Counted from the first letter of the stretch, positions 61,822-62,583 are shown. The stretch is DNA of 64,000 bases from Escherichia phage VB-EcoM-WM (PQ014731.1), one strand, 5' to 3'. Numbers and translations: made by a program. Notes: a model not told the origin generated them from the sequence alone.

Positions 61822-62583
61822 CATTATGTTCAAGGTGGTTCGCAAGGCCACCCCCGCACCTTTACGTGCTGCTGCATGTCCCCATGCAGATCAGACTATA
61901 TCTTCACACTTAGTGTGTCTACCATTTCGAGTGTCATCAGCTTACACCCTACACCGCTACATTCATCACGGTTAGTCGTTAGGCATTTCGTAACAGAACT
62001 CGTAATCATAGTTATTAGGTGCACCACGTTTCAGGATAGCAGATATTCTTTTTCTATCTATTCCTAAAACATCAGCACAACATCTCAGACTCTTAAAGTG
62101 AATAACCACACCAGTTAATTTGTGGGTGGCTTTCACCCCGTGACATCTTGTGTAAAAAGCATAACAGTTGTTGTCGTATCCTTCTTGAGTATTGTCTGGG
62201 CAAGCTCCCCACTCAAGGTTGTATACGCTGTTATCTTTCCTGTTGTCACCTTTGTGCTTAACATATGGTAAATTGTCTGGATTTGGTAAAAACGCTTCAG
62301 CAACAAGTCTGTGAACCCTTAGGCAAACAGTCTTTTTGTTCTTGCGTATCCTGACAAGACGGTAACCTGTGTTTATCTCTTCCCACGAATGAATAATTCT
62401 TTCATTTTCGTATCGGGTGCAATAAACATTGCCCATCTCGTCAATTTCATAACCTTCAAAATCACGAATTTGTTTTCTCATTTCAGGACTCCTCTTAGTC
62501 AGGAGTTCTGTTACGTTTAGCACGGGATTGTCCGTTCTGGAGTTTCCCCGTTTAGATAGATTTTACATGAGCAGTTATAGTTT
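61822..62583 (-). mobile_element. group I intron in nrdD
   Basis: Exon 1 ends ...TSMG on U; intron ends on G; P7-like GACUA / UAGUC pairing on minus strand; splicing gives SMG|CRSFL. Confidence 0.65.
61972..62523 (-). CDS. HNH homing endonuclease (intron-encoded)
   Basis: VHRLVAEAF...VKHKGDNRKDNSVYNLEWG HNH_3-type motif. Confidence 0.8.
   Translation of the reverse strand: MLNVTELLTKRSPEMRKQIRDFEGYEIDEMGNVYCTRYENERIIHSWEEINTGYRLVRIRKNKKTVCLRVHRLVAEAFLPNPDNLPYVKHKGDNRKDNSVYNLEWGACPDNTQEGYDNNCYAFYTRCHGVKATHKLTGVVIHFKSLRCCADVLGIDRKRISAILKRGAPNNYDYEFCYEMPND

Follow-up and report, generated by a model that had tools for sequence, protein, structure and literature searches.

An HNH-bearing insert at the catalytic cysteine codon of nrdD in a Vequintavirus coliphage is probably a mobile group I intron

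The stretch of Escherichia phage VB-EcoM-WM DNA analysed here (64,000 nucleotides, hereafter the window) carries on its minus strand the gene order nrdA, nrdB, glutaredoxin, nrdD and nrdG. The 3-kb region around the nrdD insert described below shares 94-97% identity with many Vequintavirus (rV5/FV3-like) coliphage genomes, and the polymerase region of the window is 99.4% identical to that of phage FV3. In the ORF list, the nrdD locus appears as an ORF of 389 amino acids (63744-62575, minus strand) with the C terminus NVTSMGKL followed by a stop codon, an ORF of 183 amino acids within the gap that begins with GTG at 62523, and an ORF of 335 amino acids (61851-60844, minus strand) that holds the segments MCRSFL and RRVSGYL. 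An optional endonuclease-like gene sits between nrdD and nrdG. A match to the lncRNA family RF02216 at 62702-62808 (E = 0.35) was taken as a chance similarity.

Domain searches assign the two outer ORFs to one protein. Pfam finds the ATP-cone at residues 1-91 of the first, together with positions 1-263 of the NRDD profile, and finds positions 264-562 of that profile followed by the Gly_radical domain in the second; the profile is cut cleanly at 263/264 and becomes contiguous once the insert is removed. An uninterrupted nrdD of 2139 nt is present in sister phages, among them I29, naam and PMBT16, and the edges of the insert were set by side-by-side reading against the intron-less gene of I29. 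An earlier note on this DNA had proposed that a 762-nt insert with an HNH ORF separates an ATP-cone half of nrdD from a glycyl-radical half, that the insert follows a U and ends in G, and that its excision restores an SMGCRSFL segment and a protein of about 712 residues. Each of these points is borne out by the comparison, the limits of the insert to the exact base. The junctions read AGC AUG GGU↓AAACUAUAAC ... GAACAUAAUG↓UGU AGA AGU (arrows mark exon-intron boundaries or insertion points throughout), so that the 5′ splice site is preceded by U62584 and the terminal guanosine (omega-G), G61822, lies directly before exon 2. Only two codons of the insert can be read in the frame of exon 1 before a stop (GGT↓AAA CTA TAA), and exon 2 opens with TGT AGA AGT, the start of CRSFL. 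When 63744-62584 and 61821-60844 are joined, the resulting 2139 nt encode 712 amino acids, the same length as NrdD of I29 and identical to it at 703 of 712 positions. The ligated RNA is predicted to read AGCAUGGGU↓UGUAGAAG across the junction (also written AGCAUGGGU↓UGUAGAAGU), and the insertion site of intron-less nrdD genes, for example in I29 or rV5, reads AGCATGGGT↓TGCCGGAGTTTTC. The note had also allowed that the two ORFs might be naturally separate proteins, a reading that is refuted by the uninterrupted 712-residue NrdD of the sister phages.

The location of the break within the protein was established by alignment with T4 NrdD, in which Cys388 of the window protein corresponds to Cys290 of T4 and Gly677, within RRVSGYL, to the T4 glycyl-radical residue Gly580. 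On the strength of structural work on T4 NrdD, we take Cys290 to be the active-site cysteine. The gene is broken between Gly387 and Cys388, inside the catalytic finger loop, and the intron therefore occupies the most conserved catalytic loop. Conserved catalytic spots of this kind are typical sites for phage introns (PMC3653736; PMC2988022). The features of the locus are collected in Table 1.

Table 1. Positions of the nrdD exons, the predicted intron and its parts, and the polymerase-gene match, counted from the first nucleotide of the window
Feature	Position	Strand	Basis or remark
nrdD exon 1	62584..63744	-	387 codons, ends NVTSMG; ORF list, Pfam, I29 alignment
Predicted group I intron, subgroup IA (T4 sunY-like)	61822..62583	-	762 nt; RF00028, homologues, covariation, intron-less sisters
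nrdD exon 2	60844..61821	-	325 codons plus stop, starts at Cys388 (CRSFL); Pfam, T4 alignment
P1 helix	62566..62590	-	exon CAUGGGU (62590-62584) with guide GCUCAUG (62572-62566); U62584·G wobble at the 5′ splice site
5′ core: P3 5′ strand, P4, P5, P4′, P6 5′ strand, P6a 5′ strand	62503..62560	-	seven-intron alignment and hand-drawn structure
Hairpin ACUCCU/AGGAGU over the HNH Shine-Dalgarno sequence	62488..62506	-	folding -7.2 kcal/mol, z = -1.9
Gene for an I-HmuI-like HNH endonuclease, 169 aa	61972..62481	-	looped out of P6a; matches to PDB 1U3E and PHROG 59
Dual-use segment: ORF end and ribozyme strands	61973..62001	-	sequence, seven-intron alignment
3′ core of the ribozyme	61822..61972	-	Rfam alignment, covariation, 80% identity to the T4 nrdD intron
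P7.1	61972-61953	-	3′ core
P7.2	61949-61929	-	3′ core
P3′	61923-61918	-	3′ core
P8	61917-61905	-	3′ core
J8/7 with P7′ (UAGUC)	61898-61894	-	3′ core
P9	61889-61872	-	3′ core
P9.1	61869-61856	-	3′ core
P9.2	61852-61834	-	3′ core
Terminal G	61822	-	3′ core
Second RF00028 match, DNA polymerase gene	22210-23011	+	29.6 bits

When the whole window was searched with the Rfam group I intron model RF00028 at its gathering score (50 bits), nothing was reported. In E-value mode, the same model aligned to 62106-61872 with 32.9 bits, for which E is 2.9e-6 locally and 1.3e-4 when computed over the whole window. This alignment fits well in the 3′ core, but its 5′ portion is pushed into the ORF, the true 5′ core of the intron being located upstream of the HNH ORF. 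The sub-threshold score is most likely due to the 0.5-kb ORF in P6a. Two orthologues at the same site exceed the cut-off, namely an ORF-less intron of 252 nt in Avunavirus 19-1-2 (79.8 bits) and an intron of 290 nt in Phapecoctavirus AMO3598 from which the interior of the ORF is deleted (70.4 bits). Both share 84-90% core identity with the window copy, and the T4 nrdD intron scores 105.3 bits. The group I fold proposed for the minus strand is supported by the RF00028 match in E-value mode, by these orthologues and by the covariation described next.

Covariation was evaluated on an alignment of seven introns, ORF-trimmed and flanked at each end by 10 nt of exon. Their sources are the window, nepoznato, AMO3598, 19-1-2, Vibrio phage F89, T4 and Mosigvirus G2285. 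A structure comprising P1, P3, P4, P5, P6, P6a, P7, P7.1, P7.2, P8, P9, P9.1 and P9.2 was drawn on this alignment by hand, with P7 bracketed as a pseudoknot with P3 for the count. In this structure, 94.8% of the cells are paired. Double changes are present at 30 of the 75 pairs, compared with 10.6 ± 2.5 in shuffled alignments, none of which reached 30 in 500 attempts, and slid controls yielded only 2-8 such pairs. P7.1 and P7.2 have four covarying pairs each. All seven pairs of P1 are formed in all seven homologues, and Felixounavirus Alf5 carries a compensatory change from C-G to G-C in this helix (GAUGGGU/GCUCAUC). A P10 pairing is possible between the P1 loop CUAUA and the first bases of exon 2, UGUAG, and it covaries in F89 (UGCC/GGCA). 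The 13-bp P6a helix, formed by CGUAACAGAACUC (62515-62503) and GAGUUCUGUUACG (62001-61989), closes the loop that contains the ORF and has four compensatory pairs relative to F89. The J8/7-P7′ sequence AAGAUAUAGUC equals the RF00028 family consensus. The sole weak spot is P5, which has only 3 bp in the window copy compared with 4-5 in its relatives.

Judged by its sequence and predicted fold, the insert is a group I intron of subgroup IA, of the T4 sunY type. The sunY intron itself is one that we take to belong to subgroup IA2 in the classification of Michel and Westhof, and the traits of this subgroup and of the sunY type are present in the window copy: its P7 and P3′ are separated by both P7.1 and P7.2, and its sequence shows homology to the nrdD intron of T4.

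The HNH ORF is likely to start at AUG 62481, behind the Shine-Dalgarno sequence AAGAGGAG, which is the start annotated for the 169-residue protein in SYGMH1 and JEP1. A phmmer comparison matches this protein to I-HmuI (PDB 1U3E; E = 6e-8) from residues 3-166 of 169 to residues 4-172 of 174, and its match to the HNH endonuclease family PHROG 59 has E = 4.5e-32. Two Pfam models matched the protein below threshold (HNH_3, 20 bits with a cut-off of 24.8; I-HmuI_NUMOD-like, 18.5 bits with a cut-off of 27). The likeness to I-HmuI, which is encoded by the DNA polymerase intron of Bacillus phage SPO1 and hence also resides in a phage group I intron, is collinear over the full length and includes the N-terminal, beta-rich DNA-binding part, the H...N...N motif and the C-terminal NUMOD-like helix-turn-helix. 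The two proteins differ in that they are at most about 30% identical, are encoded within different host genes and would have different targets. The HNH motif VKHKGDNRKDNSVYNLEW is conserved among relatives, and the catalytic His and the distal Asn are kept; the residue before the catalytic His, however, is Lys in the window and C or N in relatives, whereas I-HmuI has Asp. The I-HmuI residue is presumably the metal ligand Asp74 of the 1U3E paper. Compared with the Phapecoctavirus copy, from which it has diverged by about 15% at the nucleotide level, the ORF has a dN/dS of 0.05 and is under purifying selection.

The end of this ORF also serves the ribozyme. Its last 10 codons, with positions 1 and 2 of the stop codon, make up the dual-use segment, which forms the 3′ strand of P6a, the 3′ strand of P6 with J6/7, and the 5′ strand of P7 (GACUA, 61977-61973), and these strands translate as YEFCYEMPND followed by the stop. 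In F89, P6a has another sequence and the protein tail differs to match (FEYFEMPND and stop), and the J6/7-P7 sequence of the window intron is also found in ORF-less introns. At the other end of the ORF, the hairpin over the Shine-Dalgarno sequence is a candidate translational brake, with stronger equivalents in nepoznato and F89 (z = -3.8 in each). In T4 introns, ribosome binding sites are sequestered and ORFs run into the ribozyme core, two features thought to exclude ribosomes from the core as it folds (PMC2988022).

The intron is widely but unevenly distributed. Its full 762-nt form is present in 28 phage records, some of which are GenBank/RefSeq duplicates, and these span two unrelated subfamilies (Vequintavirinae, Phapecoctavirus): 17 are Vequintavirus with 97-100% identity and 11 are of the Phapecoctavirus type with about 85%. 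The 290-nt ORF-deleted form is found in at least six further records. Among the nrdD-bearing relatives recovered, only some carry the intron, and others in the phage collection are uninterrupted. Homologous pairs of intron and HNH gene also occupy the MG↓CR site in Felixounavirus (Alf5) and in Vibrio phages (F89), with about 50% identity at the protein level. HMD-6, JEP1, YP-6 and EPFV3-03/2025 carry the 762-nt intron with 100% identity, and two of these phages, JEP1 and EPFV3-03/2025, lack most of the polymerase-region intron sequence seen in the window. Identical nrdD introns in such differing genome backgrounds suggest recent transfer.

Divergence between the window and intron-less I29 is concentrated at the junction, with 20 mismatches in the 60-nt bin that contains it, 10 in two downstream bins, and 0-5 in most bins. 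Exon 2 opens with UGUAGA in all intron-containing alleles from the sampled enterobacterial phage genera, and UGUAGAAGUUUCUU is common to the window, nepoznato, AMO3598 and 19-1-2, whereas the intron-less allele reads UGCCGGAGUUUUCUU. This pattern is as expected of homing with co-conversion, of selection for P10 pairing or endonuclease immunity, or of a mixture of these. Together, the presence/absence polymorphism, the spike of divergence at the junction and the dN/dS of 0.05 indicate a mobile element.

To the reading of the insert as a mobile intron of group I, subgroup IA, that bears an I-HmuI-like HNH gene and interrupts a Vequintavirus nrdD, we assign a probability of roughly 0.93. Splicing, the activity and target of the endonuclease, and a regulatory role of the hairpin are what we infer from sequence, and they can be arranged in the following scheme. 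The nrdD gene would be transcribed as a single pre-mRNA on which the ribosome translating exon 1 would halt two codons into the intron. The RNA would fold into P1 to P9.2, with the guide GCUCAUG gripping the exon end CAUGGGU, so that exogenous guanosine could attack after U62584 and G61822 could direct exon ligation. The product would be the 712-residue NrdD joined at Gly387-Cys388. Translation of the HNH ORF and folding of the ribozyme would compete for the 3′ codons that they share, as described for I-TevI of T4. During mixed infection, the HNH enzyme most likely would nick or cut an intron-less nrdD near MG↓CR, and recombinational repair would then give the recipient a copy of the intron together with neighbouring exon sequence, which amounts to homing with co-conversion.

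An unlikely variant, although the one that fares best among the alternatives, is that the intron splices but its endonuclease is inactive here, in which case the element would descend vertically or depend for its movement on general recombination alone when phages co-infect a cell. The sub-threshold Pfam matches to HNH and NUMOD and the Lys at the position of the I-HmuI metal ligand would be in keeping with a lost activity. Moreover, the ORF-deleted derivatives in Phapecoctavirus show that the family undergoes a cycle of degeneration, for which I-TevIII of T4 is a precedent (PMC2988022). Nevertheless, the ORF is intact and matches I-HmuI over its full length, it retains the catalytic His and the distal Asn, and a dN/dS of 0.05 has been maintained over about 15% nucleotide divergence. 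The occurrence of a perfectly identical intron in HMD-6, JEP1, YP-6 and EPFV3-03/2025, whose backgrounds differ, likewise speaks for an active enzyme.

Far less probable is a non-splicing endonuclease cassette, with NrdD produced as two polypeptides (residues 1-387 plus GKL, and a C-terminal half) that assemble non-covalently. The full group I core, including the P1 and P10 pairings with the exons, has been kept by compensatory changes and would not persist without splicing. The ORF-less 252-nt copies at the same site, which have no endonuclease, still interrupt the frame, and a break between Gly387 and Cys388 would divide the catalytic finger loop. The model requires that the C-terminal half start inside the insert, where an in-frame GUG (61851) and AUG (61824-61822) are indeed available ahead of exon 2, and it agrees with the listing of two nrdD CDS fragments in every intron-containing GenBank record. 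Precedents for split or unspliced arrangements also exist in the mobE-split NrdA of Aeromonas phage Aeh1 and in an apparently non-splicing intron of phage CB7 (PMC7344957). A protein-level or translational element in place of an RNA intron, for example an intein or a bypass ('hop'), might be considered because inteins are present in the DNA polymerase of the window and in phage RNR genes (PMC3653736), but this extremely improbable reading is ruled out by the in-frame stop codons, the first of them two codons into the insert, by an internal ORF with its own start and Shine-Dalgarno sequence, and by an RNA fold that is that of a group I intron.

Comparable introns have been described in related phages. 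[quoted passage not shown] In Pectobacterium phage CB7, HNH-carrying introns were described in the terminase, polymerase, nrdA and nrdB genes, with splicing demonstrated by RT-PCR, and nrdD was reported as uninterrupted (PMC7344957). These introns belong to the same subfamily and element type and exhibit the same preference for genes of replication and nucleotide metabolism. However, the two papers describe no nrdD intron, and the window intron is nearer to T-even introns than to the polymerase intron of its own genome. No introns are reported in the Felix O1 paper, and no Vequintavirus nrdD intron was described in the literature that we searched, although split nrdD genes have been noted in surveys (PMC3653736). 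In GenBank, the intron-containing records list two nrdD fragments and an extra CDS that is labelled 'hypothetical', 'winged helix-turn-helix' or 'HNH' protein, and a single note reads 'Phage intron'.

The nrdD intron is real, but as a selfish element of phages it is of an ordinary kind, and it leaves the current understanding of group I introns unchanged. Its recognition nevertheless restores one enzyme of 712 residues from annotated fragments and puts right the number of genes counted in therapeutic phages of the rV5-like, Phapecoctavirus and Felixounavirus groups. It also adds to the classic T4 site a second, widespread homing site in nrdD, at the catalytic cysteine codon, and the ORF-less, ORF-containing and ORF-deleted copies constitute a natural series for the life cycle of an intron and its endonuclease.

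From a likeness of P7 sequences, the earlier note had suggested that the nrdD intron is related to the intron in the polymerase gene of the same window, whose exons had no Pfam match and were identified by PHROGs. This suggestion stands in part. The two introns share their subgroup and a 3′-terminal module: their 3′ domains are alike (z = 6.5), both have insertions of the P7.1/P7.2 type, P9.1 (GCACGUAAuGGUGCGGGG) is almost the same in the two, P9.2 and the 3′ tail are similar, and each has an HNH ORF of PHROG 59 in the P6 region. They are not close relatives, however. The P7 and J8/7 sequences are a class-wide consensus, the 5′ halves (P1-P6) have no significant likeness (z = 1.7), and the polymerase intron has a longer P2/P5. 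In addition, blastn detects a single match of 18 nt, located in P9.1, and the two HNH proteins are 32% identical. The small extent of the blastn match, the 5′ z score and the HNH identity rule out a recent duplication.

By sequence comparison, the nearest relative of the window ribozyme is instead the T-even nrdD (sunY) intron. The window ribozyme is 80% identical to the T4 intron over P7.2-P9 and 82% identical to the nrdD intron of Mosigvirus G2285 over both halves. The window and T4 introns share nrdD as host gene, an identical guide (GCUCAUG), the P7.1/P7.2 extensions, a similar 3′ end (UGAACAUAAUG), and a mobile, sporadic distribution. However, the T4 intron interrupts codon 181 (AYE-Y↓EV, equivalent to residue ~278 of the window protein), whereas the window site, Gly387↓Cys388, corresponds to Gly289/Cys290 of T4. 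The protein alignment thus rules out that the window carries the sunY intron at the T4 site. The endonuclease genes differ too: in T4, the P9.1 region holds the gene for I-TevII, a GIY-YIG enzyme, whereas the window intron has an unrelated HNH gene in P6a. The window element is consequently a homologous ribozyme at a different homing site and not T4's own element.

The 5′-exon heptamers of the two sites, uAUGAGU in T4 and cAUGGGU in the window, differ at only two positions, and one guide sequence can therefore serve both nrdD sites. One ribozyme scaffold carries two families of endonuclease. Core identity between introns of the two sites (76-80%) equals or exceeds that between same-site introns of different phage groups (71-80%). 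JEP1 has a further intron, unrelated to these, at NG↓QTPF. Tentatively, the window and T-even nrdD introns may belong to a single ribozyme lineage that came to occupy both nrdD sites by moving from one to the other. The comparison rests on 190 nt, which is compatible with movement from site to site but too short for proof. If true, a group I intron would have transposed naturally within a single gene. Reverse splicing into a site that matches the guide, or capture of a new endonuclease, could explain such a move, with the HNH gene of P6a taking the place of the GIY-YIG gene of P9.1.

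A clear snapshot of a group I intron that has lost its endonuclease and retained its ribozyme is provided by the Phapecoctavirus AMO3598, where an ORF-deleted form of the nrdD intron of VB-EcoM-WM is found, as it is in five similar records. In these introns the 5′ UTR of the HNH ORF, including its Shine-Dalgarno sequence, is joined to the final ~12 codons of the ORF (...YDYEFCYEMPND*), so that the P6a helix that closes the ORF loop stays intact. Homologous introns that carry an HNH gene occupy the same nrdD site, between Gly387 and Cys388 (MG/CR), in the Felixounavirus Alf5 and in several more Felix O1-like phages; for Felix O1 itself, no intron is reported in its genome paper. 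The group I intron in the DNA polymerase gene of the window exists in several states among relatives, being absent, ORF-less (~276 nt) or full.

Features of the window and of comparison phages
Feature	Position	Strand	Details
DNA polymerase gene, two insertions	18827-23415	+	intein-like segment and group I intron
Polymerase group I intron	~22210-23011	+	contains 168-aa HNH ORF, 22360-22866
310-aa ORF, nrdD-nrdG interval	59801-60733	-	Pfam domains and PHROG 681
Final 30 nt of nrdD intron	61822-61851	-	open in frame of nrdD exon 2
Alf5 intron and HNH gene, homologous to the window's	2380-3199		nrdD MG/CR site
ORF-deleted form of the window's nrdD intron	AMO3598 1501-1790		5 similar records
Second nrdD intron of phage JEP1	~2416-3293		group I; RF00028, 27.7 bits; 177-aa HNH ORF

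The second nrdD intron of the related phage JEP1 is unrelated to the one at the MG/CR site and lies at ...SVNG/QTPF, 10 codons downstream of the T4 site, and therefore nrdD contains at least three distinct intron sites. An additional insertion of ~256 nt is present in nrdD of navn, A147 and A135. The polymerase gene also carries an intein-like segment (~aa 664-1001 of the 1132-aa ORF, starting CYSGDTQILTEKGW), which matches PHROGs of intein-bearing proteins that are otherwise unrelated.

The ORF between nrdD and nrdG, which encodes DUF723/CapR/treble-clef zinc-finger repeats followed by a C-terminal T5orf172 domain and whose PHROG match is annotated 'endonuclease', is probably a free-standing homing-endonuclease-like cassette, and its intergenic position equals that of T4 mobC. 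The ORF is also carried by the sister phage I29 and by JEP1; the relative SYGMH1 is without it, its nrdD and nrdG being 176 nt apart.

Because the 3′ end of the nrdD intron is open in the exon 2 frame, with AUG as its last three nucleotides abutting Cys388, ORF finders place the start of the second nrdD fragment inside the intron. This open frame is probably without functional meaning, judging from its lack of conservation in T4, the Vibrio phage F89 and Alf5.

Approximately 25 GenBank records (MG0656xx) are titled 'Campylobacter phage' (A142, A141, C2, D1 and others), with Campylobacter jejuni as the stated host. These host labels look doubtful; the nrdD region of the records is 95-97% identical to that of E. 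coli Vequintavirus genomes.
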